A stretch of 62,453 bases of DNA, filler included, from Hausera hauseri (Eukaryota), in assembly GCA_046269625.1 (NCBI GenBank). It is 13 parts of 13 records of this genome, joined end to end, with 100 filler letters (N's around TTAATTAATTAA, not from the genome) between each part and the next. Parts side by side here need not be neighbours in the genome. Positions count along the whole stretch, not along the records: positions 53,930 to 58,298 come from JBJURY010613444.1; 12 more parts are not named here. One strand, 5' to 3'. The notes below the pieces were generated by a model that was not told where the DNA came from, made no database searches, and worked only from the letters and a program-made list of their open reading frames with translations. This document shows, one piece after another, positions 1 through 61,824 of the stretch. Within the stretch, counting starts at the first letter, position 1. Each line of letters starts with the position of its first letter. A program made the translations under genes and the position numbers.

Positions 1-104
1 CCCCAATCAGCAATCGGGTCCCAGCATTTCTCCCTCCTTTTGGGGTAATCGGGGTCTCAAAATCTTCTGCGGCATCCGTCCAATTTAATTCATTTTCTAT
101 TTTG

Positions 105-27200: not shown

Positions 27201-27734
27201 TCTTGTCAGAATATTACTAAGTATGATATTTGGATTAACGTCCTCTTGTGGCGCAAAATATATTGGCTGATCATCCTCTTCGCGGATTTGAGCATAAATT
27301 AGCATTTCGGTTCTAGGCGGAATATTTTCATCGACGGGAATCCATACTTCTCCTTGCTTCCTTTCTTTCATTGTTATAATACCTTTCACTGGTCCGATTT
27401 CAAGTAATTTTGCGGTCTGTAACTTTATTGCTATATTAGGTAATTGTTTCAATATGTCGCAACCTAGCACTACATCGTCGGTTAATTGACCCATTAACTG
27501 GACTAAAGCACTCCATTTAAATTTTGGTTTGGATTCTTGCCCGAAGGCTCCTATGCTGCCTGGGTCTGATGATGACGCTGGCTGCAGTTGCTTTCGGAGT
27601 GTCGGTGGTACCGATTCTAATTTGATAAACGATTTCTCTGATCCGGTGTCTATTAATGCATAGACTTCCCGATCTTTGATAGTAACTTTTGTGAAGGGTC
27701 TTCCTTCCATGAATGATCTATAACAACTCGACAC
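24293..27734 (-). mobile_element. Gypsy/Metaviridae pro-pol (protease, RT, RNase H, integrase), frameshifted
   Basis: ALIDTGS; RFCINYRALN, LDLQSGY, PFGIK, YLDD; MDIVGPLP, YHPQCNGTVERMN, TGFTPF. Confidence 0.93.
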
Positions 27735-28284
27735 GTTCTTTGTTTGTTTAATCGAAAAAATTTTTTGTCCGTTTATCGTTATCTTTGGTGAAGAAATAAT
27801 ATTTTTGCTCAGCTGTTTCAGTTATTCGTTAGGGTATAAGTCGTTAACTGCCATGTTATTTGCATTGTTCTGATTAATGATTCTTATACTATTGGATTTT
27901 GGAACGATTTCACTCCTTGTGTTCCCCAGACTGTTGATTTTGTCTCTATATTTTAAGCTATTCTTGGTCAGTACAATATCCCGTGGTCATCTTCCTCTCG
28001 TCGTTGATTAGTAATTTGCATTTTCTTTAATACACCATATAGTTTTGTTCCTTCATAATGTTCTTCATAGCTGAAAGGTTTTTGAGAGAATGCTGATCTA
28101 TAAGACATCATAGATGTTTTGTCATAGTTCTTGTATATCGGAGCCGCTGGCGACATGATAGGTAAGGGTGATCTAATTACTGAATACATGTTGTGTCTAT
28201 TTTGTCTGAGGATCGCATCTCTTCCCTTAGGCTCGTCATTATCGGAGTTATTTGTTGGTGTCGTTGGTTTCTTAGCTTTGTGTT

Positions 28285-29104
28285 TCAATTGAAATATGGG
28301 TCTTGCTCATCGTTTATAATTATAGTAGCCGACATGGCGTTCACATCAGTTTTCCATCGATTGTCTTCGTATGTTTTAAGCATTTTGCCAAACGATGTGA
28401 TAATTGCGGTTAGGATCTTGCAAGAAAATCCTGTTAGCGTAAATATTTCATACCTATTTATAACCGCTTGAATTACCGCCTTTACTAGTTGTACAATGAA
28501 ATAAATTGCTAAAAATACAAATGCAGCTTGTCCAAAAATTAAAAATCTTCCCCATATTTTGCAAAGTATTTCTGTAGTTACCCATTGGTATTGATTTGCG
28601 CAAAGCAAGGATTCCCATTTTGCTTGGTATTGCGTATCATCTACTACTAATGCCATAGCCCGATTTAATTCGTGTGTCCGCTGTCGTGGAAAAGCGAGAA
28701 ATTGCCGAAAAGCTTCGATTTCTTTAGGCCTATAAATGCCTTTCTGAGATATATCCTGGAATTGTCGTCGGTAATTCCTTTTGCTAAATTAGTTCCAGTT
28801 AGTTTTTTAGGGATAATAATAACACCTCCATTGGGTAAGCTAAACCAATCCGTTTCGCCACGTCTAAACATTGGTTCACTCAAACTTGCTTTGCAATCCT
28901 TTAATATTGTAGGTTGTGTTGCGTTGTCTAGCAATACTTTAGTGAGAGGCATGGCTAACCGTGGGGTATTCTGGTAGATTATAGGGCGCTCCTGTATGCA
29001 TCGTTTTTCTTCAGCGTTAATTGGTACATCTATTTTTTCGCATTCATTTGTTAGTAAAACTTCGCCAGTAACCCGACCAAAAATTCCTACTCTCATGGGA
29101 ATAA
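28285..29104 (-). pseudogene. C-terminal half of an env-like glycoprotein resembling chuvirus/herpes-gB-related class III fusogens of invertebrate LTR elements
   Basis: GEV....C..I.V.....C.QE.PI.Y....P..K.L....T...C...PMF....W cysteine pattern; GIY..E....R.FL.FP across a frameshift; W..F..FG followed by a hydrophobic TM region. Confidence 0.7.
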
Positions 29105-29554
29105 NNNNNNNNNNNNNNNNNNNNNNNNNNNNNNNNNNNNNNNNNNNNTTAATTAATTAANNNNNNNNNNNNNNNNNNNNNNNNNNNNNNNNNNNNNNNN
29201 NNNNTGATTGAAAGTGCATCGTCTACTACACACGCCTGTACATGTGCCATTTTGAGATTATTGATTATTGGTGGGCCAGAACCGCCATTTATACACTACT
29301 CCAATTGTGTTCCTTGTCAATAAAATCAATCGGTTAATTATTAAGTAGAAAATAAGACATGTATGCTTAACTTGGAAAACAAGTGTACCGCGCGTTAACT
29401 TGTTTTTTTAGAATTGTTATTTATGTTCACTACAATAAACTTAATTTGATATCTAATGAAAATGTACGATGGGAAACGATTTCAGATTAATAAATAGTAA
29501 AATGGAATTTAGAATTACAGATATTAAATAATTGAATTTGTGATTAATTTGTAG

Positions 29555-29758
29555 AATGTGCTCAACGATGTCATAAAAATGCCGTCTGTATACAAGGAAA
29601 ATGCCAATGTCTACCAGATTTCAAAGGAGATGGAATAACGTCATGTTTCAGTTGTTCTGTTTGTGACAGATATGCGACTTGTGTTCCAAATGAAGAGAGG
29701 TGTGTTTGCTCACCTGGATTCCAAGGAGACGGAAAGATTTGTGGACGAATTGGAGAAC
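29555..29758 (+). CDS. 204-bp phase-1 exon encoding two EGF-like domains
   Basis: AG/GT borders; CAQRCHKNAVCIQGKCQCLPDFKGDGITSC..CDRYATC..CVCSPGFQGDGKIC. Confidence 0.85.
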
Positions 29759-30202
29759 GTACGTTCACAGTTTGAATAGATTTATTTTGGTTCTTTTTTG
29801 AATATTTTAAAACGTTCAGAAATATAATCGTCTTTCCGAAATATTGAAATTTTTTGCTCCGTATACACATTTTGTATTTTGGTAATTTTTATCTTTTGCA
29901 CATTTCATTGCTGTAAAGGAAATTGTTTATTTGACAACAAACTTTGTTCAAAATACCAATAAGTAACCAATTACAAAACTATGATAAATCTTACAAATAA
30001 TAGAACTTAGTTTTGAATAGATCGTTGCACTACAACTACTTTTTTAATCAATCAATTTTTAATTTAAGATTATTGATAAATCACAATCTATTGATTGATA
30101 ATTTAAATCAAAAATATCCACAATTAAAATTTTTTTTACAAAAATTTATCTTACAATTTTTACAAAACTATTCGGCTATTTATATTAAATAATTTTGGCT
30201 TA

Positions 30203-31267: not shown

Positions 31268-32325
31268 TATAACACTTTACATTAGAATTTTTATAACGCG
31301 TGGTTTACCGAAAAAATTCTGTCTAAAAGGTCATCTGATTTCTTAATTGACATTAATTAACTTATGTACTGTATATTCAGAATATTCAGATTTTAGCAGG
31401 TTTAGCTAATTTCCACACTATTTCTCATGGTTCAATTTCTTTTAATCAAACATCATCGTGTGATCTGTCAATATGCGCATGTCAAAAATATGAATTTTCC
31501 CATAATTTCTTTTTTGTACAGTTTTTTCCAATTATTCTTTGGTTACTCCACTTATACGGCTATTTTCGGTGATCCAAATTATGTGCCACTGTTACGAATT
31601 TTTAAATTCGGAATAGTGTATCGATGGTAAAATTATGTAAAACAGATTTACTCTAGGAGACCACTCAAGAAAGGGCGGATCCTTTCCAATGACAGAAAAT
31701 GAAATGAAGTGAAAAACAAATTCGTTTAAATGTTCCTTTTTCATGCTTTTTATCAATAATTAGTGGTACCGAAATATTTTTGGTTAACTTTAATCCTAAT
31801 TTAGGCATTTACAAAAATAAAGAAAACATACATCATTCTATATCATATTAATTTCAAAGCAAATCAACGAAATCTGGTACAGAAAAGCATGTTAATAATG
31901 TAGTACATTTGGTGTAACATCTTTTGTGAGATCTTTATTTCCATCACTGTAACTAACTAATATTACGAAGAGAACAATAATCGTTTTACCATTACAAAGA
32001 CAGACTTAATACATTGAAGATGACTGAACACCCAAGCAGAAAACTCTGTTTATAAATTGTTTACATTATCAAACGTATTCATCATCTTTCAGCATTAGTT
32101 TGAGAGGAAAATGTAAGAAATATCAATCATTTTGTGAAATTTCACAAATTAATTAAAATGATGGAGATTACCAAATTGATAAAATATACAAATTATTTTG
32201 TGTTAATTTTTGTTGATAAGAACGAAAAGACATAAACATACTATTAATGTTATTAGCATGTGTTTCTTGAATGTGTTATCAAATTTGTTTTACAGTAAAT
32301 GCAATACAACAATATTTTACTATAG

Positions 32326-32529
32326 AATGTCCTCAAAGATGTCACAACAATGCAATTTGCGTCTTTGGAAATTGTCGATGCCTTTCAGATTTTGAAGGAA
32401 ATGGCGTATCATCATGTTTCAATTGTTCTACATGCCATGTCAATGCTGAATGTTTGGTTGATGAAGGTCGATGTAATTGTTTACCTGGTTTCATCGGAAA
32501 TGGAAGGACGTGTACAAGAATTGGTGAAC
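32326..32529 (+). CDS. Paralogous 204-bp double-EGF exon
   Basis: AG/GT borders; CPQRCHNNAICVFGNCRCLSDFEGNGVSSC..CHVNAEC..CNCLPGFIGNGRTC. Confidence 0.85.
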
Positions 32530-33209
32530 GTGAGTTTTTCACTTTTTTAATCATTTTATTCATCAAGTAAGATTGCTCGACAATGTTTTGGGAATTGTTT
32601 AGTTATAAACGTAAAGATTGACTTATTTTATATTAGGAACACAAATCTTAGATGAGAAAATTTAGTTTCAAGAAAACAACTTTTATATTTTTTACTACGG
32701 TTTTCTTTTTTGTTTTATTATTTCAAAAAATTCATTTTGAAATATTAATTTAAAACTGAACTTTATGATTCACGTGTAAATATATTAATTATTTATTATT
32801 TATTGTAATTGACATAGATTATTGGTGCAGAAAAAATATACTGCCAGTTTCTGAAACACTTGCAAACATTTTCATAAATTATTTTTAGTTCCAAACACAA
32901 TCTCATTTCAAGATCATTGCAATTATTTATTTAACCTCCGATCCAAACATAATAATTTTTAACGTGATATACCATAATCCTTTGTACAAAAATCTAACGT
33001 GATACATTAACATCATTCATTAATTATCACACTTCATGAAACATAGAAAATAATTTTACTAGCCAATATAAAACGAACTAAGCATCTATTACTAATATCT
33101 AACAGTGTTTGTAAAATTGGTAATATTGCTTTCGCACCAATAAACCGTGTTAATTACAATAAATAAGTAACATATTCACGGGTGGATCAAAAATTGTTAA
33201 AAAATTTTA

Positions 33210-38970: not shown

Positions 38971-39816
38971 NNNNNNNNNNNNNNNNNNNNNNNNNNNNNN
39001 NNNNNNNNNNNNNNTTAATTAATTAANNNNNNNNNNNNNNNNNNNNNNNNNNNNNNNNNNNNNNNNNNNNTAAAAGCAGTTGAAAAAGAGTTTGAAATAA
39101 TGAAAAAATCAAGCCACTAAAATAACTGTTTAATGTTTTGTAAATAGTGTTTTCATTCAATGTCTCCATTCTGGACAGCATATGGACCAGTTATAAGTAT
39201 GAAATTGACTGTTGTTTTTTTTTAAATGGTTCAAATAATTTCTGAAATATAATCTTGGAAGCTGGATTACTTGTACCGACAATAGTGGAACCAACAGACA
39301 ACATTGGAAGCAACATTTTTAAGTCTATATGCATTATTTTATCAAATGATAATAAAATAGTGTCGCGCGTGAAGATCATTAAAAGTCGCGAAAAGATCAT
39401 TACAAGTCATTAAATTTGGTCTTGGAATTTCTGTAGATACCCTGGTCCTACATTCTGATGTTTATTTTTTTCTCATGTTTTATACATTATACTTTCCATC
39501 CCACTAAGTGTACAACCGTTTCAATGCATTCTATCCTGGATAAGTGTACATTCATCGTCAAAGAAATACACATTGTCATCTCATGTTTTCAGATTAGATA
39601 TCTGTATCCATGTCACGCTTCATCTGGATACACGTTTATTTACATACATAATCAGTGGGGATACACATTCATCATTGTCTTGTGGTAGATTCATTTTGTC
39701 AGAACATTGTCATGTGACTTGTTGATTCCATACAGTTGTAGAAGATTCAGTTGCTTAAATATGCTTTCCATGGTCATCTTTCATAAATTGTGATGTTGTT
39801 AATTTATACTTGACAG

Positions 39817-40152
39817 ATGATGAGCCCTATGAATATGATGCCACAGTTACCTCAAGTACAAATACAGCAGCAGCTGAAACAGCAACAAAAACTGCTGTCA
39901 ACCAGTGAGGTTATCAGTATTAGACTGCAGAGTGGAGCGAGTAAAAAGATGGATTACAGACGTCTGTCAAAAGGCACCAAGCAAACAAGATTCGGTGAAA
40001 ACTATACGACATATAACGAACTGGTTGGCTTGTTCAAAGAGTCGTTGAGTACGCAGATCGCTCGTAGGATGACACGACGTGAGAAAGTCTATCTGCAGTG
40101 TCCACAATGCAAAACGATACTGTCAACCGCTGAGAAACCAGTTAACGATGAG
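39817..40152 (+). CDS. Probable host exon, Q-rich with a CxxC motif, function unknown
   Basis: TTGACAG acceptor, open frame of 112 codons, GAG|GTGAGA donor. Confidence 0.45.
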
Positions 40153-40621
40153 GTGAGATTTGTCATTGCGTACTATTTGTCTGGCAACAACCTTTTTCAT
40201 TTACTTATTAACGATTTCTCTTCCCCATTTCTTATATGTTTTTGCTCTTTACATGTCCGCCGTTGGCATAACAACGTCACCCCTTTTAGGTTTAGCCTCC
40301 AGTTGTAGTTGAAACTTAATGTCCCGTTATTTAGAGATTCCCTATAATTGTTCACATGATCCACTAACAATTTCATCAGCCCTTAGCTTAAATATTCATC
40401 TGAGAGATTTTCCATAGACGTCTTCTGAATTCCTTTGAAACCGTGATTTACGGAATATATATTGATATACCCCTTGTTATGTCTAACCTCCATTTACGTA
40501 CTATTACTTTGGACAACAGTAATACCATCCCTACTGATGGTATCCAGTTGAGTGTCGATCGCCATAGAAACACGATTGAACAATTGAATCAACATACTTC
40601 TCTGACCGGACCCCCGGTGAA

Positions 40622-43600
40622 GTATCGGTCAACCCATATGTTCGGGTGCATGGCAGTGTGATTGACTTCCTGGCCTCCTGTCCTTCGTCAGTGGGTCCCA
40701 CACCATGGTCCATTAAATCGCCACACCACCCAATAGGGCCTATGACACCCCTTTCGTTTTACTTTTTATTAAATAATTCTCAAATACTGACGTACTATAT
40801 CACATAGCATATAGATGCACTGTACTTATACAAATATTTACAACATTTTACTGCTGTTTCAGACTTTTACTTAACTATTAATACTCTACCACTCGTTAAT
40901 GCCAATGTCCGAAATTATTTTCTCCTTCGACCCCATATCTTGTTATACATATACATATGCGCATACGTGGTGGAATGGACTCTTCCCTCACCAATGACAC
41001 CACTGACAAAATTACCTCTAAACCATTACATTTTGCTTTTCACCAGAAATGAACGACCGTAATCACGCCATCTACTTTCACCAGTTATACATCTTCCATC
41101 CCGCCAGCCAAACACACTTCTTCTCAGTGCATGGAATATTTTATCGATCATGAAAAATCCAGAATAACCTGGCTCAGCTTTCACAAACTTTGGCTGCAGT
41201 CTAACAACATTACTGATCCCTCAGCAAAAGTTCATAGTTTACTTTGCCTCTTCTCTTCACGACATTTTAGATATTTTCCAACAATCCGACGAGTACACAC
41301 ATCTCTATAACGCACTCTTAAAACTTACCGAACCATCTATGGATTCCATAATCCATAGATTCTTTAATGATAACGCCATTAGAACACAAAAGCTTTCTGA
41401 GTTTTTACGTACGTCGTTGGTTCACCTAAAAACGCTAGGTGTAACTAGGCAGCACAATTCAGACCTTCTGCGACGATATTTCTTAAACGCGTTGCCCATA
41501 CAAATTAGAACACTCATTACCGTTGTCGAGGAATCTACGGCGTTAGATAAATTTGCGGAATTGGCTTATAAAACACATGAAGTGCTGCAATTGAATTCCC
41601 AACCAATTCTATCAGCAGCTGTCGCAACAAGCGACAATCAACACCATACAACAACAGAGCAACAGTTGAGCCAATTACGCGCTGAAAATTTAGCACTACA
41701 ACAGACAAAAAATAACTTTAATAATAGGTTGAACGATCTTTCATTACCACGACGAAGTGTTCCTATTCATAATCATATTCGTTCTGTTTCCAGAAACAGG
41801 TCACCATCGCCTACACGATATTTTGTGTGCATTTATCATAGCAAATTTCACAATAAAGCTAATAAATGCCGTTTAGGGTGTAGATATTACATTCCAAATT
41901 TACATTTAGACAAAATCGTTTGCATCTGCCATGCGAAATTTGGATTCCGCGCTCAGAAATGTCTTTCAGGCTGCAACTATAAGAATAACGCTAACCATAC
42001 TACCGACAGACGTTCTATTTCCCCTACTAATAGTCAGCCGATCTCACCAATTCAAAAGAACTAATTTCGCCGCCATTACTCACGGCAGAGTCTGGCAAAG
42101 GCAACTTCTCTAATACTACCTGCTGACACACTTCTTTTGCAGTCTTTACACTAAAGGCATCGATAACCACACCAACAACTCAATCCATAGACTTCCTTAT
42201 CGACACAGGCGCCGCTGTTTCTTTGATACCACTCACTTTCCCTGTGCAAAATTCACCATTTAAAGATAATCGTTATTTACGGCTTCAGGATAACCGCCTG
42301 ACATTTCAGGTACATCTAAATTGTCGTTCACCTTACCAAACTTTCACTCCACATTTCATTGGACGTTTACCGCAGCTAACGTTCGCACAGCAATCCTAAG
42401 TTCGGATTTCTTATCGCACTATAATCTTTTAGTTGATTGCAAACAACAATGTCTGAGACGTAACACTACTGGATATCTTACCGAGCGAATAAATAGTATA
42501 TCCGATAAGGCGCAAACGATCTTCCCGCGGAAGCTTATACTCAAAAACCCTGTAAGTAAAACAAACCTCTTCAACAAGCATTTTTCATTTTGTAAATTTT
42601 TTTTAATAATAATGTCAATATTCAGTCGAGAGTTGGTTTTGACAACTACGATTGTGTTGGTTCAGTAAATTCATTAGACAAAATTACCTCTTCAAACACT
42701 ATTTTTAATACTACTATCCTACGTCAAATTCCCCTTGATTTCGATAACTCGCAAACATCACTCGTCACTGCACATATTGACTCAACACTATCACCATCAC
42801 CCAATTTCTCGCAATTGCTTGCAATACACACTTTATGCCGCCACTTAATCCAGAAAGACCGAACCTTCACATCTACAAACAGCACTTCTCATCACATCAT
42901 AATGCAACACCAAAGACCTATTCGTCAAAAGGAACGTCCATTGTCACCTCGTCATAGGCAAGCTGTCGAAGCGGAATTTCTAGACCTTGAACGCTCCGGC
43001 ATTGTGCGCAGACCTAAATCGCCGTGGTCTTCGCCTTTAAACGTTGTCCAAGAAAAGATGGATCCTTCCGACCATGCTGTGATTACCGTCAGCTAAACAC
43101 TTTAACTGTTAGGAATGCATACCTTTTACCATTAATTTAGGACATCCTGCACCGGCTCAATTCTACTACAGTATATTCAACCATAGACTTAGCCAATGCA
43201 TATCATCAAATTCCTGTACCACCCGAGGACATCGAAAAAACTGCCGTTAAAACACCTTTCGGCCTGTACGAATACATTTATATGCCTCTTGGTTTAAGCA
43301 ACGCTGAGCAGACTTTCCAACATCACATCAACTCCATCTTGTCGGATTTCGTTTTCGCGCATCCATATATAGACGGTATCTTGATTGCTTCGTCTTCAAC
43401 TAAACAGCATGAAATACACCTTCATTCTACTTTCCAACGACTCAGCCACCACAATTTATAAATTAATTTTACGAAATTTCACTTCTTCCAAAAGCGTATT
43501 AACTTTCTCGGAAACATCATTTCGGCAAATAGTTATTCTCCTCAGCCAGAACATGTTGAAGCTCTCAAAAGTATACAACTACCCCGAACAACAACAGAAA

Positions 43601-49178: not shown

Positions 49179-52100
49179 GCAGTGGTTGGAGCGTCTGTAG
49201 TAAGGATAAGTTCGGTATCAGACTTGGGAAAAGCGAGAATATCGACAGTTTTGATGCCTTCGCGTAGCTTATCAAATTTGTCAAACAATTCAGGTGTCCA
49301 CTGGATTGGTTGATGTTTTTTCCCTCCGCTTAGGTGTGCGAATGGTACTGTCAATTCGGAGCAATGGGACATATTTATGTAAAGTGTAGTGTACCGAGAA
49401 AACTGCGCATTTCAGTGGTTGTACGTGGCAACTGGATATTTTTAAATGCTTCGACTCGGTCTGGTCGGGGAGAATGACCGTCTAGTGAAATAACGTAGCC
49501 TAAAAAGTTAATGCGCTTTTTGAAGAAATAGCATTTGTCGAAATTGACTTGGAGATTATGGTGGTTAAGACGTTGGAATATTGAGCGAAGGTGTTCTTCG
49601 TGTTGCTTGGCCGAAGATGGAACGGCTAAAATTTCGTCGATATAAGGGTGTGCAAACGGGAAATCTGAAAGAATTGAATCAATGTGCCGCTGAAAAGTTT
49701 ATGCGGCATTCTGCAAACCGAATGGCATAAATAGGTATTCATAAAGACCAAAAGGATTAGTGACAGCAGTTTTTTCTGTCTTCGGGTGACACCGATATTG
49801 ATGGTATGCTTTAGCTAAATCAATGATCGAATAAATGGTGGTTGAGTTAAGACGATGCAAGATATCCTTGATGAGTGGTAAATGGTACGCATCCATGATA
49901 GTCAAGTTGTTCAGCTGTCGGTAGTCACTTCATGGTCTAAAAGTACCGCCCTTTTTGTATAACGTGTAAAGGTAATGACCAAGGAGATTTGGAACGGCGT
50001 ACTATGCCGGAACGTTCTAGTTCAAGAAATTCGGCTTCTACGGGCTGCCTATGACAAGGTGACAGAGGTCGTACCTTTTGGCATATTAGTCGTTGATGCT
50101 GTATAACTATATTTTGTAAAGTGCTATTTGTGGGAGTAAACGTACGATCTTTTTTAAGTACGCGTGGACATGATGTGTTGACGAATTGTTGTAAATTTGT
50201 AGGTAACTGTGATAGATTCGGTGAAAGTGGTGAAACGGCTTGAGTATTATCGGATGCAATTTGTGAGTTGTTTGGTGATGTGCTGTCAAGTGGTATTTGG
50301 TGTAAGATGGTAGAATTAAAAATAGTGTTGGATGAAGCGATTTCGTGAAATGAATTAACGTTGGTGGTAGTACCATAATTATCGACATCAAACCTCAATC
50401 GAATATCATTATTATTATTTGAAAATTTAGGAACTGAATTATTGTTATGAAAATTCGAATTATTCATTGATTTTTCCTAGATCGGCCTCTGAGTCCCGGT
50501 CGACTGCGCGGTAGTCGAAATGCTATTGGTATGCCCAAAAATGTCGCCAGTGGTTCCGTTCTTCAAACATCGTTGACTGCAGTCAACCAATAGATTATAG
50601 TGTTATAGAAAGTCGGATTCTAGAATTGCCGTCTGGACGTTAGCGATTGTGAACGTCCAGTGGAAATAGGAAGGAAAATTTGGTAAGGTGAAAGATAATT
50701 TAGCCATGCCAGAAATGTGCAGCGCTTGGCCTGAAGCAGTGTATAAGGGCTTAATTCGGAATGGAGAATTTTGTACACGAAAGGTTTGTGGTAATAAAGA
50801 AATCGCTGCACCTGTATCAATGAGGAAATCAACAGATTGTGTTGTAGGGGCGATGATTGCAGCCTTTATATTAAATAGAGCAAGAGACGTGTCGGCGTTT
50901 AGAAAGTGAAGTAGTGCCTTTGCCAGAGTTTTCCGTGACTTCTGGCGGCGAACATAGTTTTTCTGAAAGGGTGAACTAGGACGACTATTAGAAGGAAAGG
51001 TAGCACGTCCGTCGTTCGTATGTGATTTGAAAGTGCAGCCTAAAATTCATTTACAAGCTTGGTTTTTGAACCTTGCGTGGTAGATGCAAACAACGGTGTT
51101 CGAGGAAAAACTTTGGTTATAAAATTTGCACCTTAGGCAGCACTCTTGAGCACTAGTGTTAAGTCTGCTATGATAATAGCAGGTCGACAAACGCGCCGGC
51201 GATGGTGAGCAGTTTCTAGACGCAGAACAAACGCGGTCATCGACAAAATCCTTTCGGCGGGACAGATAAAGTTCGTTTAATTTATGATTAATAATGTTGA
51301 TTGTTGCGTGTAATGCAGTATTTTCAGCACGTAGCTGATTAAGCTCTTGTTCTATTAGTGTGTTATTGGTTTGAGTATCGTTAGTTACAACTGCTGCCAA
51401 AACAACTGGTGCGAAATTTAAGTGTAGAAGGTCGTGTGTCCTATCAGCTAAATCCGCCGATTTTTCAACAGTCGTGGAGTCCTCCACCAAGGTAAGTGGG
51501 GCCCGGATTTGGATAGGTAACGGCTTCAGGAAATAGTGGAGCAGTAGATCTGGATTGTGTTCTTTAGTGACGTCGAGGGTATGTAGATGTGCCAAAGTGC
51601 GTAAGAATTTTAATGGTCGTTGCGTGCCTATCACATTGTCGTGGAAGAAACGTTGTATGATTATGTCCATGGAGGGTTCCGTGATCTTAAGAACGGCGTT
51701 GAAAAGTTGGGAATATGGGCCAGGAAGTTCAAACATTTCGATGATGTTGTGAATTCGTGTTTTGATGTTATTATGGAGTAAGAAGAGATTTTGTGCATTG
51801 GTTAAAAAATCAGTAATATTATTTGTTTGTAGCCATAGTTGATGAAATTGCAACCACATTTTGCTGCAGCCTTGGTTGTCAATAAAGAATTCGGTGCAGT
51901 GAGAGAAAGGAGAGGAAGAGGTAATGGGTGAAAGGTTGCTAGCAGGGGTAGAAGTGGGTTTTTGAAGCAATATAACAGATTTTGGTTTCGTAGTGGTTTT
52001 ATCCGTTGTCTATGGTTGGCGATGAGTTCATACCACCACGGGTACGGAAGTGTATGTGGATACAAGTATGAGTTGAGAAAAATGGTAAATTTTCAGTGAG

Positions 52101-52362
52101 GGGTACTATAGATCCATTATGTGTAAGGTAGAAATCGGAAGAGTGGAATAAGATGGAAATGAAGTTACGAATTGTTGCAGTGTAAATGCAATGAAATGAG
52201 TGTGTGTTTATTATTTAGAAAAAAGAAGATGGATAAGAGATAGTGTGCTCGGGGGCGTGTTGTGGGGCTGAAGCTAAAGGCGCCATCTGACCAACTGGCG
52301 CAGGGTAGGCCGCCGGGACCTCAGCCTCGCCGCACCGGGTCCCAAATTTCGGGGTAACCGAT
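49179..52362 (-). mobile_element. Second CsRn1-like Gypsy internal region, degraded
   Basis: Gag homologous to 41339-42064 (CYYH..C..C and CIYH..C); FLIDTGA; IDLAKAYHQ, MPFGLQNA; LTTDA. Confidence 0.9.
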
Positions 52363-52599
52363 TTCTCTGCTTAAGGTATGATGAAGTGCACCGCTGACGG
52401 AGTAACAAGTGGATATGCATCGCATTCTATATGCAGCTTTTTTGCATTTACAACAACGACGGCTAGGCCATTTACATATACTATTGCCTTTGGTAATGAT
52501 GCAGCAACGCCAGGTGCGGTTCCATACGGAACAAACAGAGTGACCTCTTCGCCGGGTTTGAGCACAACGATCATACAATGTGTAGTTATTATACCCACG

Positions 52600-52705
52600 G
52601 ATATATTCTAAACCCTGATGAAATGTTTGCCACTTCTGTAGATAAATTGGAAGAAAGTCGTTAATCTCATTTCTATTTGTCTCTTGCTTTATTGACTCAA
52701 TGTGC
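52600..52705 (-). pseudogene. Cullin N-terminal repeat-like fragment
   Basis: HIESIKQE...DFLPIYLQKWQTFHQGLEYI resembles cullin repeat 1 (L..Y...W..Y..G..Y). Confidence 0.45.
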
Positions 52706-52712
52706 CGTTGAG

Positions 52713-53194
52713 TCAAGCGAAGTGTATCGGTATATAACGACTCGGCATAAACTTCACTTCTATCTTTTTTGCTGCATACCTTTCATTATCTACGCTAGGC
52801 GTACCCCAATATGCATCATAAATAATAGCCTTTGTCCTTAATGACATAAGTGCATATCCAATATTATTACCGTGATAATAAAAATTGACAATGTAGAAAT
52901 GAATATTACCTTGTCCACTCATCTGGCTATTTCATTGCTTCCCTGATCAGTTTCTCTTCCGATTAAGAAGTGTAAAAGTCCATGAGTATTCCTTAATACA
53001 GATGCTGCAAACTCCTGAGAAACACAAATTAAACTCTGGCCGTTTACGTCCACAATTTGATCATCAGAATGAACATTGTCGACATTTTCGAAATGAGTGG
53101 TTCGGAAATTGTATGAATCCGTTAAAAAGTCCTCGAAATCAGGCGCATTTGTAACTAATTTTTGTAGAAATACAAATGCGTGGAGCATTTTCAA
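52713..53194 (-). pseudogene. Possible MULE-transposase-like fragment following a Ser/Asn-rich ORF (53139-53672)
   Basis: FYIVNFYYHGNNIGYALMSLRTKAI resembles the MULE YAL...KT motif; the catalytic DGT motif is not seen. Confidence 0.35.
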
Positions 53195-54828
53195 TCATTT
53201 GATAAAAACTGAGATTAATATTAGACGGTTCATGCTGATCAATAAATTGTACATCATTGTTAAGATTTATAAACTCTGCTGAGTAATGACTGATAAATTG
53301 GTCATGTTTGTTTTCTGTATGGCTAATTGGATTCGATATTGTTTCATTTAACGTAGGTGTTGGTTTATCTACATCTGAATCAGAGTCACTTTCAACGTGT
53401 ATTAACATCAGTTGATCGTTGGAATGTATACCATCATAATTTTCAGATGGTACTTCAGCTGAAAGACGATTCGGTTTGGATGTCAATGAATCTGTGTTGT
53501 TAGATGGACTATTGTTTTCAGATTTTTCGTTACTATTGGATTTGGAAAGTGATGTCTGTTCAACATTTTTCGTATGTTGAATACTTAATCTCCGTACACG
53601 GAATTCTTCGGCTACTGGCTGAATAACGGAAATTTGGTTACTTAAAAATGGGGATGTAACTAACAATGACATTGAATTTTTTGAAATTTAAATTTGAGAC
53701 TTCTGACTGATCAGAATCGCTGTAAATGTACTTTTCATTTTTTAGCATATTTTCAACACCTGGTAATGACCAAGGCTTTTTCATCATCAATACTGAATTG
53801 TTCCAATTTCTGTCATAACTTTCAACATTNNNNNNNNNNNNNNNNNNNNNNNNNNNNNNNNNNNNNNNNNNNNTTAATTAATTAANNNNNNNNNNNNNNN
53901 NNNNNNNNNNNNNNNNNNNNNNNNNNNNNAGATGAATGATCGGAGAAGCGAAGGAAGAAAGTGAGTCAGACGGGTGTAGCACAGAACCATGGTGCGACAA
54001 ATAAAAATCGGAAGTGTGTAGGAAAGAGGATAGACATAGATGGTGTAAGCAATGTCCGTGTTACTAGTGTGTATGGTAAAAATGTTATTTTTAAAAAGAA
54101 AAAAGAAAGGGGTTGAAGAGTGATGCCAGAGGCGTGTTGTGGCGCACGGATAACGGACGCGTCCAGGTTTCTGACCAGATGATGTTCGGGCCGCATAGCC
54201 GAGGGGGCAGTCGCCAAAACCGATCTCTGATGGCCAATGTTTATCGCAGACTGATCGGATGCTCCGTATATGTCAATAAGTTTAGAGTCGTGGATGTTTA
54301 AGTAACCACACCTTATAATTCGAATAACCATAGAAAGAATCGGTATAACATGCATCATCATTAATAAAAGGAATATCGTCACAACTATCACCAATTCATA
54401 AGCGGCTTTCCGCTTCAAACGGTGCCACTGAATCCGAATAGAGATCGTCAGTATCAATGATCATAAAGGTGTCTTGTTGAATTTTCTCCAATTGCGAATC
54501 CGTCTTTTTCAACAATGCACAAACTCCATCCAAAATCGGTGATCGTTGCATTCCGGATTGTGGCAGTATAGGTAATGGGAAATAAGTATTCGATCGTGAA
54601 TGCGTCGGTGCTGGTGACGATGATATTTTTCGAAACACGGAATTTCATAACGTGTTATAGTATTCATCGGTAACCAAATTGGTTTCATCTTTGGAAAGTG
54701 TTTTTTTCTTGTTATAAAGTCCGGATACAAAGAGTGAGGCAACGGTATGGCTCATTGTTATCGGATGGTTTGATATGAAATCGTCGTAGGAACTATCGAG
54801 TATAATCATACGAGTACAAGAATGTGTA

Positions 54829-54926
54829 TGGTGCCCACAGCGGCCGGTGCCCTTTAGCCCATTTGGTCGGGCACGGCCGGATTTTTGTTAACGCCGCGTC
54901 GGGCCCATAGTCGGTCCCGATCTTCC
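54829..54926 (-). promoter_or_regulatory. Conserved GC-rich non-coding cassette, copy D
   Basis: Clearly homologous to 60734-60831 on a different segment. Confidence 0.6.
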
Positions 54927-55244
54927 GCCTCGACATTTTATGATTTTCACTCAAATAGACCTCAGAAACAAAGATGATGCCCGACATCAAACGAGCCTGT
55001 TTATATATGAGTCCGCTGATCGCGTTTTAAGCCACTGTGTTACTGGTTAATCAGTATATTTACGGGATCAGTTTAAATGAAATTACAATCAAAACCAAAA
55101 CCAATCTGGATTCTAGTCCGTTGTTTTGCAATGCTATTCGTCTTTATTCAGGGCCCCGTTGTTGTGTTTAGAATGGTTTACATGTTCATGTTGATTCATT
55201 TTCAATTGACATTTATTATATCTTATACCTTTTTGGCGGGAACA

Positions 55245-55300
55245 GATGTATACGTTCATGGTGGTTTGTCATCTATAGATATGTTGAATCAATTGGTTAT
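55245..55300 (+). pseudogene. PPP-family Ser/Thr phosphatase-like fragment
   Basis: VYVHGGLSSIDMLNQL compared with the PPP motif CVHGGLSPSI.TLDQI. Confidence 0.4.
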
Positions 55301-55498
55301 CAGATATTTGCATGGCGTCTGGGAACATGTTCCTGTTTACTCTCAAGTACAACTACAGTGTTCGTATAGTTATTCCATGACATTTACATAATTAGACGAA
55401 AATGTAATACTTTGAGTAGCGCTTTGCAATTCAAACATGTTTAAACTGGCTAACGTCACTTGGTTGTATAATATAATGAATATGCACTAGTTCTAATT

Positions 55499-56205
55499 AT
55501 GGTCTACAAAATTCACTATTACAATGGAATATTGTACTCATTCTTCGGTCGCTCCTTACAATCGGTATTTACCGAAGCACAACGATTTAATTCAAATTCC
55601 AACATTACTCTAAGCTTCATTAAAACACCTGAGACAACTAGACATTTGGGATTTTCGCACTTTTCATGGTCTGAAAATGATTCTCAGGTGTGGATTCACA
55701 GTGGTGCTAGGACAGTATCACTCGACATGTCTGACACACCGGTAGCCATTCTTACCAAAGTTACGGGTGCTACCACCTTTCTATGGCATACAATCAACGA
55801 CGGAAGTGGTCACACTGCTACAGTACCTGAAGCGCTTTTCACGACAGACATACCCGGTTTCTCACTTCTCGACTCACCGCTACCTCTGATGGATTGTACT
55901 GGCTACGCAATTCATTTAGAAATGCATGTTTATATCATTGTTTGGTTTCCGCACCTGTGTCTAATCATACTCCCATTGACTTTTTCCAGCACTGCGAACA
56001 GACGGACGAAGTTTCGTTCATTAGAGATCGGCCCTTAAAATTGTACTCACAATATCAACTTAATAATCACATAGCCAACAAGGAACAGAGCATTACAGTT
56101 GTTTGCAAAAACCCCGTAACAATGGCTATTAGCAACAGGCGACCGGACTTAGTAATTATTAGTGTACGCATTGGTATGAATTCTACTGAGCCTAGTAAGG
56201 TACCG
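55499..56205 (+). pseudogene. UBR4: Intronless internal fragment of a UBR4/pushover-like E3 ligase
   Basis: YWL..S...PIDFFQH....DEVSF....L.LY...Q...I......ISN......VRI.....K.P is collinear with the UBR4 PIDFFEH region as I recall it. Confidence 0.65.
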
Positions 56206-56277
56206 AATCATACTGAGGATAAAATTCTTAAATCAGCCATTATGAAATATGGCACAAATCAGTGGGACAGAGTGACC
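56206..56277 (+). pseudogene. CDC5L: CDC5/Cef1 Myb repeat-1 fragment fused in frame to the UBR4 fragment
   Basis: TEDKILKSAIMKYGTNQWDRV compared with CDC5L [21 protein letters not shown]. Confidence 0.75.
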
Positions 56278-56301
56278 AATGGAGAAACATTATATACAGG
56301 A

Positions 56302-58298
56302 AACTCGGCTACCCCGAAATTTGCGACCCACCGCGGCGAATCTGAAGCCCGGCTGCCCACCCTATGCCATTGGGTCGAACGGCACTTTTCGTTGCCGCCT
56401 CGAGACACGCCCACCGCCACACGACCTGTCCTCATTTCCTTTTTCTTCTTAAATAACAGACACATTTGCACAAATGCAGTAACACATTTAAAAACGGCGA
56501 CAATCTATAACTTAATCTTTACTCTTCTTTGCACAACAGACTTTTACCTCACACATTACGGCGCCACGGTACTTTTCGTTGGAAATCTGCAACCTTCTTC
56601 CATCTATATTCACCTTCACATTCACTTCCGCATCCGTGGTGGCATGGATTTACCATCCACTATAAATACAACGGACAAACCCACCAAACCACCGATCTCT
56701 ATTACTTACTTGCCAAACAAAGTGCTTCAAACACTCCGACACAGCACACACTCCCCACTCATTCATCCTGTACAGAATACTTCCTTTACCGCCAAAAACT
56801 CCACTCAAACATGGCTAAAACTACACAATTCTGGCTCCAATCACAAAACGTCGTCGACCCCTTATCCAAAGCCAACAGCCTGTTTTTCCATTTACCTGCT
56901 TCTATCAAAACTAAAATTACAAACATTATCGACATCCTTCAAGACACCGATACATATGCACAACTTTATAATGCCGTTCTTAAGCTCACTGAGCCGTCAA
57001 TCAACTCTATCATTCAAAGGTTCTTCAATGACAACGCCATGGGCCTACAGAAACTGTCTGAATTTTTGTGCACATCTTTGTCTCACCTCAATACCCTTGG
57101 CGTAACATTTGAGCATAGTCCAGAACTTCTTCGTCGCTACTTTTTAAACGCACTGCCCTTCAAATAAGAGCTTTTTTCACTCTGGTCGAGGACTCCATGG
57201 CATTGGAAAAGTTGGCCGAACTGGCGGACAAAGCCTATGAAGTGCTGCACTCACACACAGCACCAACTTTCTATGCGGCATTAACAACAAAGCACCAACA
57301 ATAAAGTGCAATGCTGCAGCAACAAATTTCGCAATTACGCACAGAAAGCGAAATTTTGCAAAAGACAATTAATAACATAAACGAGAAATTATATGAGTTA
57401 ACGCTGCCTCGACGAGGTCTTTCTAATGCTGCTTCCCCTAATGTATTTCATAAACGATAAAGACGGTCGCCTTCGCTCGCGCGGTCATCTATTTGCTACT
57501 ATCACAACAAATTTGTTAACAATGCTCAAAAATGCTGCATCGGTTGTAAATTTTACTCCCCTATTTTAATACAAGCAACATCGTCTGCATCTATCACGCA
57601 AAATTTTGAACAAAAGAACAAAAATGCCTACTTGTCTGTAATTACAACACGCACAATAAAATCAACACTATCAAACCCACATAAAATAGCAGGCCAAACT
57701 CTCCAGCTACAAAACACTCATTTTGCCTTTAGCATACACGGCAAGGTCTAGCAAAGACAACAACCTACAAAAAGATAGCCGACACATTTCTTTTGCTGTA
57801 TTTACGTTGGAAGCAGCAGTCGTCACTCCAACAAAGTAAAACATTAATTTTCTCATAGACACCGGCACAGCAATCCCTTTATTTCCACCAAAACAGCACA
57901 TCCAAAACAATTTTACTTTAAAAAAGCAACTGTTCACTGCGTCCGGTGAACCCTTACAAACTCTTGGTGTTATCAAATTAACTTTCACTCTTCCAAATTT
58001 CCAAAACACATTCACTTGAAATTTACAGTAGCCAAAGTACGCACACCTATATTGAGTTTAGACTTTCCGTCTCACTATAATTTACTGGTAGACTGCAAAC
58101 AATGTTCCTTAAAGAGCGGAAATAATTTTAATTAAATTAGCAGCATTTCGGTGACCACCCGGGTGATCGCTTCCAGCAAGTTAATACTGAAGAAAACGAC
58201 CTCCGATTTGACTTACTTTTATAACCATTTATTATATAAAAATTTTTTTACGGCAACAAATACGATATTGCCAACTGCGTGGCACCTATTACTGATAG
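56302..58298 (+). mobile_element. Third CsRn1-like Gypsy internal region (gag, pro), degraded
   Basis: LKLTEPS...IQRFFND..LLRRYFLNALP; CYYH and CIYH motifs; FLIDTGT. Confidence 0.88.
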
Positions 58299-58569: not shown

Positions 58570-60510
58570 ATTTCGCCCCACCCACTTTCGCTTATCATCC
58601 TTATATGACAAAGCGACTTTCACACTGGTTATTGTGTACAGCTAGAACTCAATTGATCGGGTGATCGTTTGCGACACAACAGCCACTGATTGTCCTCCTT
58701 CTGCTGCTGCTGTTTCTTCATATATACGGCGATAATCACCGTGGTCGATTTCCATCTGTCTCAGCCGGACTCTTTTTGCCCGAATTTTCAGTCCACAGTA
58801 CGTCAGAAGACTGTATCACTTTTGGCGTAGGAATATCCGTTCCCGATACTGAACCATGCCTTCACTTTCATCCTTGAAGTAGCCGATTTCGTTAGTGACC
58901 GCGCTGCTGTACAGAGGATGATCCGGTGGATAGTTGGACGTGTCAAGTAATCCATCTGACTGCATTTGCTGCAGTAGCTGTTCACGATCAACTTTTTTCA
59001 GCCGCAGGAAAAAACTGTCTGTATCACCGGCAATTATACTAATGTCACAGTCATCAAACATTTGCCGGTAACGTGCCAAATATCGATACTGTAGCTTATA
59101 CATCCGCAACTTACTCAGATCCAATACCACTTATCCGATGTAACTTGTCCGGTCCACAACGACTTCTTCTCTATTTAACAGCACCTCAACCAATCCATCG
59201 GCAATACGTGACCAAATGCTTTTCACTATTGTATAGGCGTACATTGAGCCGCTTTTCAGATTCTCCACTGATTTTCCGTATAGGTAATTGTTTTTCAGCT
59301 TGTAGTAGTCCTTTTCGAACTTTGTGCAAGTTGCAACTCCTTTCTTCGGATTTCCATCTGTGTACGCCTTGAATATGGCAGCCCGAGAAAATCGGATTGC
59401 ACGACGCAGCCGTGTGACGCGAACACCGAGATGCATGTGAAACTGTAGCAAACTTCAATAAACCACGTAATTCAACTTCGCTTCATGCATCATAAGCAGT
59501 TTTTTCACTTTTGAGTCTAGCGGACATTGGTTAAATGGTGCAACCAGTAAATCGACTAAAACGTCATGCAGCTCATCTGGCGCCACGAGATCGACCTCCA
59601 TCAGGTATCCGACTGAGCCTGCCATGTCTGCTCGTGGTAGATTGATGATTTTTGTAAATTTCTTCATCCGCCAGTATTTCTGCGATTGTGTTGTACCGGA
59701 ACACGTTGATTGCCGTTGTCGGATTACGCCGTTCAAAAGCCGGAATGGATTTCAGTTTCATTGGCATCCAACTTTCATCGAAATCCAATTCGGAAAAATA
59801 TTTCTGATACTGTTTTGAACGAAATGCACTATGTCTGTCCACTTCGTCATATTTCAATACCGCCAGAATACTGTAACAAAAACGGTATTCATCGTTTGTA
59901 TATTTTACATTCACTACCGCCAGAGACTGCTTCAGAGCTAAAGGTGTCGGTATGAATGATCGTCCAGACAAATATATTATACTATTCTACTTTCTTATGA
60001 TAAAGCCAAGGGTGACAATCTTTACAATTCGCCATCCACTACAATTTTCTCTGCAGTTGGCGATTTTCTCCTCCAGCTTTTCGCCAATCTTAGCTATAAA
60101 ATCCTCGGCATATGGTACAACTCGACGTGACAGGTACCATTGCTTCCTGTCGCCTTGCATGTTTTCGAATTCTGCAAGTGCATAATACTGTACTTTGCAG
60201 TGGTGGTGTTGGAATTTGTCCACTTCAGATTCCAACCGGTTTCGTACAATGGCTGGAACATGTCTCAATTGCGTTGTTATTTTCTCTGACATGTTCACTT
60301 TTATATCCACGTACAATTTTTTCAGATTGTACTTGACAGTAATGCGTGGTTCCTCCATATATTGCTCCTGTTCCTGCTGCTTTTTCTGCTCATTCTGCTG
60401 TTTTTGATTTCTGTCGTTTTCGTCAAGTATTCGGCAAGGCTTTTTGATGCCTGACGTTTCCTACTTGTTGAAGGAATACTACTGCTGCTGCTGCTTTTTG
60501 ATCCGTCCAT
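58570..60510 (-). pseudogene. Third pPolB relic with a large internal deletion
   Basis: SGWRI, SFIPTP..VVNVK, FERRNP (N-terminal domain) joined near 59660 to GYLMEVDL, KLKNNYLYGKS, GDTDSF, GYFKDE. Confidence 0.88.
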
Positions 60511-60733: not shown

Positions 60734-60831
60734 TGGTGCCCACAAAGGCCGGTGCACTTTGGCCCATTTGGTCGGACACGGCCGGGCGTCCGTTGCCGCC
60801 GCGTCGGATCCATAGTTTGGTCCGATCTTCC
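60734..60831 (-). promoter_or_regulatory. Conserved GC-rich non-coding cassette, copy C, between divergent pPolB and chromodomain genes
   Basis: Homologous to 54829-54926. Confidence 0.6.
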
Positions 60832-61077: not shown

Positions 61078-61824
61078 ATGATGTCTCACGATCACTTTTC
61101 TATTTCGGACAATTTAAATTCTGACAAATTATATCCGATTGAGCAAGTTGTGGGTAAAAGACGACGAAAGGGTATTATTCAGTATAGAATCCGATGGAAA
61201 GGTTATCCGCCAAGTCAAGATACGTGGGAACTGGTTAGTTTAATTCGTGAAAGCTGTCTTACGTTAATCAAAGAATTTGATGACAAACGGAAATCGTTGG
61301 ATTTGCAAAGTGAATTTGATATGCATTCGAATGAAAGTGATAATTTAAACTGAAATTTGAATGATATGGTTTCAAAATCGAAAGAACATATTAACGAGCA
61401 GGACTTGTTACAGAAAAGCGATTCTGATATTGAAATAGTTATGGTGGAAACACTTATACAAATTAAAAAATCAGTAAATAGCCCTAAAGACACGACGGTA
61501 TCACACAATAAAGTCCCCAAATCTCGTTCCTTCGTTAATAAATCGAAGTCCGAAATTGGGTTGTTACCCCATCATCCCGTTCAAACGAGCAGTAATATCT
61601 CCTGTTCCAGTACGTCGTACATCAGTGACAAATCGAAAACCGAAACACCAATTACAAATCATTTAATCGAATTGAAAAATTCTGTGAAAAACTCTGTTTT
61701 ATATCATCAACCTAACACATTTGTAAATAATAACAGGTCAGATCCATCCAATTCATTGACGACAACCGACTCATCAACAACACCAAACAGTCGTGTGTCC
61801 GTCGACAAATCCGCGAGTTTTTAA
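61078..61824 (+). pseudogene. N-terminal chromodomain protein with a Ser/Asn-rich tail and one in-frame TGA at 61351
   Basis: YPIEQVVGKRRRKGIIQYRIRWKGYPPSQDTWE; ORF 61357-61824 continues in the same frame. Confidence 0.85.

Follow-up and report, generated by a model that had tools for sequence, protein, structure and literature searches.

How do short pieces of unrelated host genes come to lie, in sense and partly in an open frame, ahead of the gag of a retrotransposon? The question is raised by a locus of Hausera hauseri (assembly GCA_046269625.1) within a window of 62,453 nucleotides, the whole stretch of DNA analysed here, which consists of 13 short, transposon-rich contigs joined by N linkers. 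For contig 12 (positions 53930-58298), the initial annotation had described a mosaic of intronless host gene fragments (PPP phosphatase, UBR4 and CDC5 Myb) abutting a Gypsy element, and had attributed it to serial mRNA capture by template switching or to Pack-type transduction.

Host-gene pieces upstream of a Gypsy gag

The pieces and frames that concern the mosaic of contig 12 are the following.

55107-55232 (+): Piezo fragment, TM1-24 region, Pfam PF24871 positions 555-596 (E 1e-5)
55254-55271 (+): VHGGLS, PPP-phosphatase-like motif (6.0 bits), assignment unsupported
55472-56038 (+): 188-codon open frame overlapping the start of the fusion ORF, no informative Pfam, PDB, ESM Atlas or fold-search match
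55831-57105 (+): 424-codon fusion ORF, running from UBR4 through CDC5L, a linker and a predicted ubiquitin-like segment to the Gag N terminus
55969-56205 (+): UBR4 fragment, human residues ~2287-2365, ungapped phmmer alignment (E 0.003)
56206-56277 (+): CDC5L first Myb repeat fragment, residues ~12-35, same frame as UBR4

Two of the three pieces named initially were borne out. The UBR4 piece gives an ungapped phmmer match to residues 2287-2368 of UBR4 in the PDB (E 0.003-0.004 against 177,635 sequences), and the CDC5 piece corresponds to the start of the CDC5L Myb region, with a best PDB match at E 2.7e-5 and a Pfam Myb match at E 1.1e-4. Both lie on the plus strand and are fused in frame, as had been claimed, with the join after SKVP at 56205/56206, and the Gypsy does follow some 25 bp beyond CDC5L, since 24 nt (56278-56301) separate the Myb piece from position 56302, where similarity to a sister copy begins. 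Adjacency to a Gypsy is therefore correct but mere abutment is not, as the mosaic is in frame with the spacer and with Gag, and the description as intronless holds solely in the sense that every piece aligns without gaps to its match. The PPP phosphatase piece was not supported, though an animal-type match may still exist. It rests on the six residues VHGGLS, which are not above chance: a profile made from 15 of 17 fetched loci, representing giant-virus PPPs rather than animal PP2A or PP4, matched these residues alone at 6.0 bits, a score that was equalled in 17 of 20 six-frame shuffles of the window. Neither the PDB nor Pfam gave a match to this piece at E 10, and a first PPP pattern search returned nothing. 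In frame with the VHGGLS motif lies a Piezo piece that had been overlooked, whose match to PF24871 scores below the gathering cut-off.

The UBR4, CDC5L and Piezo pieces are short and diverged, and they reach significance in smaller libraries only. A HMMER search with the UBR4-CDC5L stretch against 1.84 billion protein representatives gave no matches at E 0.001, and word-based searches with the UBR4 piece and with gag were likewise negative. Several further candidates were discarded. The frame at 55472-56038 was considered as upstream UBR4 sequence, for which phmmer, the Atlas and a model with a pLDDT of 41 gave nothing. Likenesses noticed by eye to Cdc42 (at ~54935-54975; no PDB match), to Aurora kinase (the search returned a weak Ig-like match only), and to metaxin and leucine-rich repeats were unsupported, while matches to MBOAT_2, sCache and DUF6951 were taken as chance.

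The element and its predicted ubiquitin-like spacer

Downstream of the mosaic, the plus-strand element of contig 12 comprises the following parts.

56425-56643 (+): predicted ubiquitin-like spacer of 73 residues, ending HFRIRGG, with the Gag ATG (56644) immediately after it
56644-57639 (+): decayed Gag with a frame change and stops (DUF7041, E 0.0055)
57494-57547 and 57586-57639 (+): two CX2HX9CX3C (CHCC) motifs in Gag
57723-58099 (+): aspartic protease region (tblastn with the relative P0004, E 2e-11), before the contig end at 58298

Judged by its sequence, the element is a Ty3/Gypsy of CsRn1 type. The CX2HX9CX3C motif of Gag, given as a CsRn1-clade signature in the available text of PMC2582038, is found in all three gags and is doubled in contigs 9 and 12. 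The order protease, reverse transcriptase (RT), RNase H is found in the sister copies on contigs 9 and 11, while contig 12 stops after the protease. The RT is 44-64% identical to the best 120 of 201 relatives, several of which have a CHCC or DUF7041 Gag, and flukes, sea slugs and arthropods are among the hosts of those listed. Taken with the neurabin and Piezo pieces, these relatives suggest that the DNA comes from an invertebrate animal. In a 38-row tree of 36 of these 120 relatives and two window sequences, in which no named CsRn1 reference is included, the contig 9 RT groups on a long branch with five environmental sequences (96/83). All copies in the window are decayed. Searches of viral contigs and metagenome contigs found no copies of the family; they returned distant relatives only (2 and 14 loci), none of which fits the spacer profile, most falling short of the region upstream of gag. 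Several bacterial genome bins and viral contigs also contain Gypsy pol (L040-L055), probably as animal contamination.

The frame that leads into Gag is open to an unusual degree. The fusion ORF runs stop-free for 272 codons up to the Gag ATG, whereas none of 20,000 shuffles is as open, and the 123 codons between the end of CDC5L and the ATG are equally open in 113 of 20,000. At the end of this frame, the motif RxRGG-M occurs in each of the three copies that reach the gag start, and these are its sole matches in the six frames of the window. Pairwise comparison of contigs 12 and 11 shows the spacer to diverge in the manner of coding sequence (pN 0.32, pS 0.71 over 68 codons), the corresponding values being pN 0.23 and pS 0.80 for gag and pN 0.42 and pS 0.55 for the linker.

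An AlphaFold model of the spacer (pLDDT 49) has the strand-helix order of ubiquitin (bb-a-bbb). The top 15 Foldseek rows for this model are all ubiquitin, NEDD8, ISG15 or UBL (E 0.12-0.9), and a VIA search over 48,161 chains places ubiquitin-like proteins first with 67 aligned residues, an rmsd of 3.0-3.2 and a Z of 5.2, a value in the range which the tool labels unspecific. A second low-confidence model, made for another ORF, gave no comparably coherent list of structural matches. Searches of the spacer against Pfam (E 10), the PDB (E 10) and the Atlas returned no sequence match to ubiquitin families. A ubiquitin-like (beta-grasp) fold is thus likely for the spacer, as a prediction made at low confidence.

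The rest of the window is of mixed character, with a GC content of 0.29-0.42 between contigs, and it may combine organisms or genome compartments. A different Gypsy, at 24476-29102 (-), encodes a fusion glycoprotein of Monjiviricetes type (Pfam E 2e-21) 5' of protease, RT and integrase; planarian Burro elements are likewise described as having env ahead of the protease in the accessible part of PMC6431247. At 22636-23832 (+), a MATH/TRAF domain and a RING finger occupy neighbouring uninterrupted frames and may belong to the cargo of an element instead of forming a host gene, both being among the accessory motifs of Burro in the same portion of PMC6431247. Two BEL/Pao-type pol regions (DUF5641) lie inverted at 100-5443, with 77% identity across 2.5 kb. 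Decayed protein-primed type B DNA polymerases (Polinton-like) occur at 6275-8335, 11351-12440 and 58575-59643, the last two being 71% identical, and similar EGF-repeat stretches (67% identical) are found at 29548-29772 and 32271-32567 (+).

Sister copies and the likely site of capture

The spacer or its start is present in four copies, namely contig 12 (+), contig 12 (-), contig 11 (-) and contig 9 (+). The features of the sister copies, and those that bear on the ends of the plus-strand element, are as follows.

39071-40974 (+): contig 9 copy, with a coding-like upstream region and a frameshifted spacer ending RIRGG
52032-52238 (-): predicted ubiquitin-like spacer in the contig 11 copy, with RTRGG as its last residues ahead of the Gag ATG
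52376-53829 (-): upstream mosaic of the contig 11 copy, with neurabin PDZ and cullin pieces
~52492-52776 (-): cullin piece (Pfam Cullin E 5e-5; no PDB cullin match)
52925-53074 (-): neurabin PDZ piece (PDB neurabin E 1e-9)
53930-54822 (-): fourth copy, head-to-head with the plus-strand element of contig 12, comprising the spacer start and a shortened upstream region
54825-54931 (+): GC-rich repeat of ~100 bp, the putative 5' terminus (LTR start) of the plus-strand element
56305-56317 (+): putative degenerate primer-binding-site (PBS)-like sequence, read through in frame
60734-60831 (+): second copy of the 100-bp repeat, 82% identical, with a TGTGG start at 60732

Copies with the same spacer carry unrelated upstream cargo in all four cases. 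In contig 11, the last upstream frame is that of the linker, the ubiquitin-like segment and Gag, with two stops ahead of the Gag ATG. Upstream of the contig 9 copy there are weak Pfam matches only (Piezo THU9, E 0.009-0.013; DIL, E 0.007), and the fourth copy gives hints that are weaker still (GPCR-like, E 0.03; Ig-like, E 0.13), with no host match better than E 0.007 for either. As the contig 9 and minus copies give weak matches only, most of the cargo is without an assigned host gene. No DNA is shared among the four upstream regions, which consequently show no conserved LTR core.

The cargo nevertheless has a direction. In Markov simulations of the four upstream regions, the three longest sense frames were as long in 0, 23, 0 and 2 per 2,000, whereas the antisense frames of the same regions are ordinary (p 0.19-0.99). 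Pfam tiles match at E<=0.02 in 5 of 96 cases in sense as against 1 of 80 in antisense, and at E<0.001 in three as against none. All five pieces at E<0.01 beside the contig 12 and contig 11 copies are in the sense of the element. Two long sense frames to which no identity could be given lie upstream of the contig 9 copy (39814-40305, +, 164 codons) and of the contig 11 copy (53142-53687, -, 182 codons).

The mosaic of contig 12 lies between a high-copy terminal motif and a PBS-like site, and the upstream mosaic region is therefore likely to be the 5' LTR of the element. In run X1, the single run that matches the stretch (0.40 of words) and possibly its source sample, summed depth, which is not copy number, reaches its top over the repeat (16,594 at 54829-54931), amounts to at most 13,900 across gag and protease, and is ~10, the single-copy level, over 55244-55535. 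At the left edge of the repeat, 143 contigs part ways just before 54829, and the coding strand switches across it. This layout fits an LTR of ~1.5 kb inserted into a minus-strand copy. A ribozyme or other structured RNA was considered for the repeat and for the linker and was discarded (no Rfam match; fold z -0.8 for the repeat and -0.6 to -0.8 overall). The second copy of the repeat is flanked by a Polinton-type fragment and a chromodomain ORF, and no evident mosaic follows it; the ORF (61078-61350, +, E 2e-11) could itself be cargo or an integrase tail. A search ahead of the copies on contigs 9 and 11 did not turn up the motif, but these contigs may stop short of it. The contigs end before the 3' end of the elements, where the second LTR and the 4-bp target-site duplication expected for the CsRn1 clade would lie.

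The PBS-like site was identified by comparison with a primer motif of the loci L020 and L043, which we take to be of tRNA-Trp type. Its identity to the L020 motif is 9/11 in contig 12, 10/11 in contig 11 and 7/11 in contig 9, and in these three copies the best match within 600 nt falls at a homologous place, 328-348 nt before the Gag ATG. Shuffled sequences match as well in 79 of 2,000 trials for contig 12, 4 of 2,000 for contig 11 and 1,756 of 2,000, i.e., chance level, for contig 9. The site begins TCGG instead of TGG in 3/3 copies, and it was not seen in the fourth. ARAGORN found no tRNA in 22 loci with which the motif could be compared, and the available portions of PMC3286476 and PMC12471100 contain no usable PBS sequence. 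The L020 motif also occurs at retroelement-like 5' ends, and in L043, an ordinary CHCC element, the PBS motif stands ~34 nt before gag and less than 200 bp from integrase, and an RGG spacer is lacking.

The departure of the site at 56305 from the clade motif leaves room for the same RNA-level capture having taken place in an internal 5' leader, with the true LTR and primer site further upstream, which would approximate ordinary LTR-mediated retroposition. The 100-bp repeat itself starts with TGG, and internal capture is the documented norm according to the accessible text of PMC5131818. However, what lies to the left of the repeat is a minus-strand region of another element and no LTR, the flanks at 54829 are heterogeneous over 143 contigs, and the best PBS-like match recurs at the same place in three copies, so that we regard an internal leader as unlikely, if the best placed of the alternatives to capture within the LTR.

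Routes of capture and known systems

We propose, with moderate confidence, that the locus is a decayed CsRn1-type Gypsy with sense-oriented Piezo, UBR4 and CDC5L pieces in its likely 5' LTR, that this region was filled by template switches, and that Gag would be freed by host ubiquitin-type proteases. Of the two routes suggested initially, serial mRNA capture by template switching is the one that fits the sense-oriented pieces, the lack of poly(A) and the sister layout with different cargo, while Pack-type transduction is the less likely. No A or T run of seven or more and no consensus splice donor was found in 54821-56700, and the terminal inverted repeats (TIRs) sought around the contig 12 mosaic amounted to short, chance-level pairs, which argues against LINE-type as well as Pack-type routes. 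We infer the LTR location of the capture, its RNA origin and the template switching. In this proposal, the RT, at work on the terminal region, would jump to mRNAs packaged with the element and then return; sense-strand scraps would enter the LTR and would thereafter be copied along with it. Host ubiquitin-type proteases would then cut after the GG of the spacer and release Gag. Translated captures upstream of gag would block or corrupt Gag unless they were both in frame and removable, a cost that a cleavable ubiquitin-like spacer would lift; in-frame captures would thus be tolerated and would accumulate differently in each lineage. The cargo itself looks unselected.

Serial 5' transduction, in which elements residing in genes are transcribed or spliced from host promoters and carry upstream exons along, one gene per round, would explain why the pieces are in sense, lie upstream and are fused in frame to Gag. 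It is known for SVA elements from the available part of PMC13317346, and a CAG does stand a few bases before the conserved region in three copies. Yet no pyrimidine-rich acceptor is present ahead of the linker and the pieces come from mid-protein (UBR4 2287-2365). Moreover, in LTR replication the sequence upstream of an LTR element in a transcript is lost at strand transfer, so that a transcript begun there would shed its cargo. We consider this route improbable, slightly more so than an internal leader.

Capture at the DNA level, whether by a Helitron or by a Pack-type TIR element, with the Gypsy inserted alongside, is more doubtful again. A DNA element could have the 100-bp repeat as one of its ends, and elements of this kind take up several genes, as far as the accessible text of PMC6431247 and PMC13317346 goes, but the search for ends, which covered TIRs, found none that bound the mosaic, the splice donors are lacking as noted above, the frame continues into Gag, and the layout recurs at four Gypsy copies.

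An assembly or amplification chimera is very improbable: the contigs are short, a single run that may be their source matches the stretch, and the key joins are unspanned (the UBR4-CDC5L junction among 8 listed of more than 7,300 X1 pieces, and both this join and that of CDC5L to the linker in the two X1 contigs cited here), but two inner stretches are covered by X1 contigs at ordinary single-copy depth (55252-55545 and 55516-56126; depth 8-10, with 1 and 3 differences), the host-like pieces are found at many-fold depth at an identity of at least 80% (summed X1 depth of 75-240 over the Piezo, UBR4 and CDC5L bins), and the sense bias, the in-frame joins and the repeat of the layout across independent contigs all speak against it. 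Given the X1 depth over the inner stretches and the host pieces, the join is not a one-off.

Capture into the 5' LTR by template switching, as preferred here, has individual features in common with a variety of known systems. Template-switch capture into internal regions is established for LTR elements, and the accessible text of Tan et al. 2016 (PMC5131818) describes LTR-mediated retroposition that resembles our case in joining partial host coding pieces to LTR-element sequence without poly(A), with up to four genes per locus and further amplification within the element. In the same text, by contrast, the retrocopy had taken the place of some internal ORF sequence in 15/15 Drosophila cases, whereas here gag and protease are in place and the cargo is upstream of the PBS-like site, copy-specific, and in frame with spacer and Gag. 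Maize Bs1 is alike in that one LTR element holds three host-gene fragments in a chimeric ORF (PMC13317346, PMC7264820, PMC5131818); it is unlike our element in being from a plant and having one fixed cargo, and the available portions of these sources describe neither a ubiquitin spacer nor an LTR location.

A parallel to the proposed role of the spacer is offered by cytopathic pestiviruses, in which, according to the accessible part of PMC8310069, a ubiquitin insert may be preceded by other host mRNA and captured ubiquitin frees NS3 with its authentic N terminus via host hydrolases. The pestiviruses are RNA viruses with a true ubiquitin captured lately, whereas the segment here is highly diverged, belongs to a retrotransposon lineage as a whole, and has a cleavage that is predicted. 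Within the CsRn1 clade, the element shares the CX2HX9CX3C Gag, DUF7041 and RT relatives in flukes, sea slugs and arthropods (compare the available text of PMC2582038, where the LTRs of PwRn1 are given as 381 bp); it differs from PwRn1 and L043 in the 328-348 nt between PBS and gag with their spacer, in the mosaic of at least 1.4 kb upstream, and in the doubled CHCC. The planarian Burro giant Gypsy elements also carry host-like polyprotein domains, one of them ubiquitin/SUMO-like, but in the accessible text of PMC6431247 these are complete accessory domains that follow an N-terminal Gag, rather than short, variable scraps upstream. Drosophila telomeric elements, as described in the available part of PMC13534243, are retroelements with 140-235 bp host fragments of piwi, aub and nxf2; they are non-LTR and their cargo is drawn from piRNA genes, unlike the seemingly unselected cargo here. 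By analogy with them (PMC13534243, same portion), the scraps might serve the element via small RNAs. The literature within reach of our search, which mostly did not extend to subscription papers and repeat-database reports, gave no account of variable host mosaics that lie ahead of a primer site and share a frame with Gag and a ubiquitin-like spacer.

In LTR elements, the uptake of host mRNA is known as a sporadic mishap by which the element is mostly inactivated. In the present lineage it seems to be systematic: gag and protease stay in place behind it, and a predicted cleavable spacer is a plausible device for enabling it. A bolder and more tentative reading, which we consider possible although not probable, is that of a class of animal retrotransposons whose LTR is a running mRNA-capture array, in which a domesticated ubiquitin-like spacer would insulate Gag and mosaics of host exons, different in each lineage, would be copied and perhaps translated. 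Such an element could act as an exon-shuffling machine, and possibly as a source of decoy peptides or small RNAs directed against host genes. If the proposal is true, it would explain in a testable way why certain retroelements put up with host sequence and multiply it, and it would reveal one origin, in animals, of chimeras that join several genes in frame; it would also caution that annotation will take LTRs of this kind for broken-up host genes.
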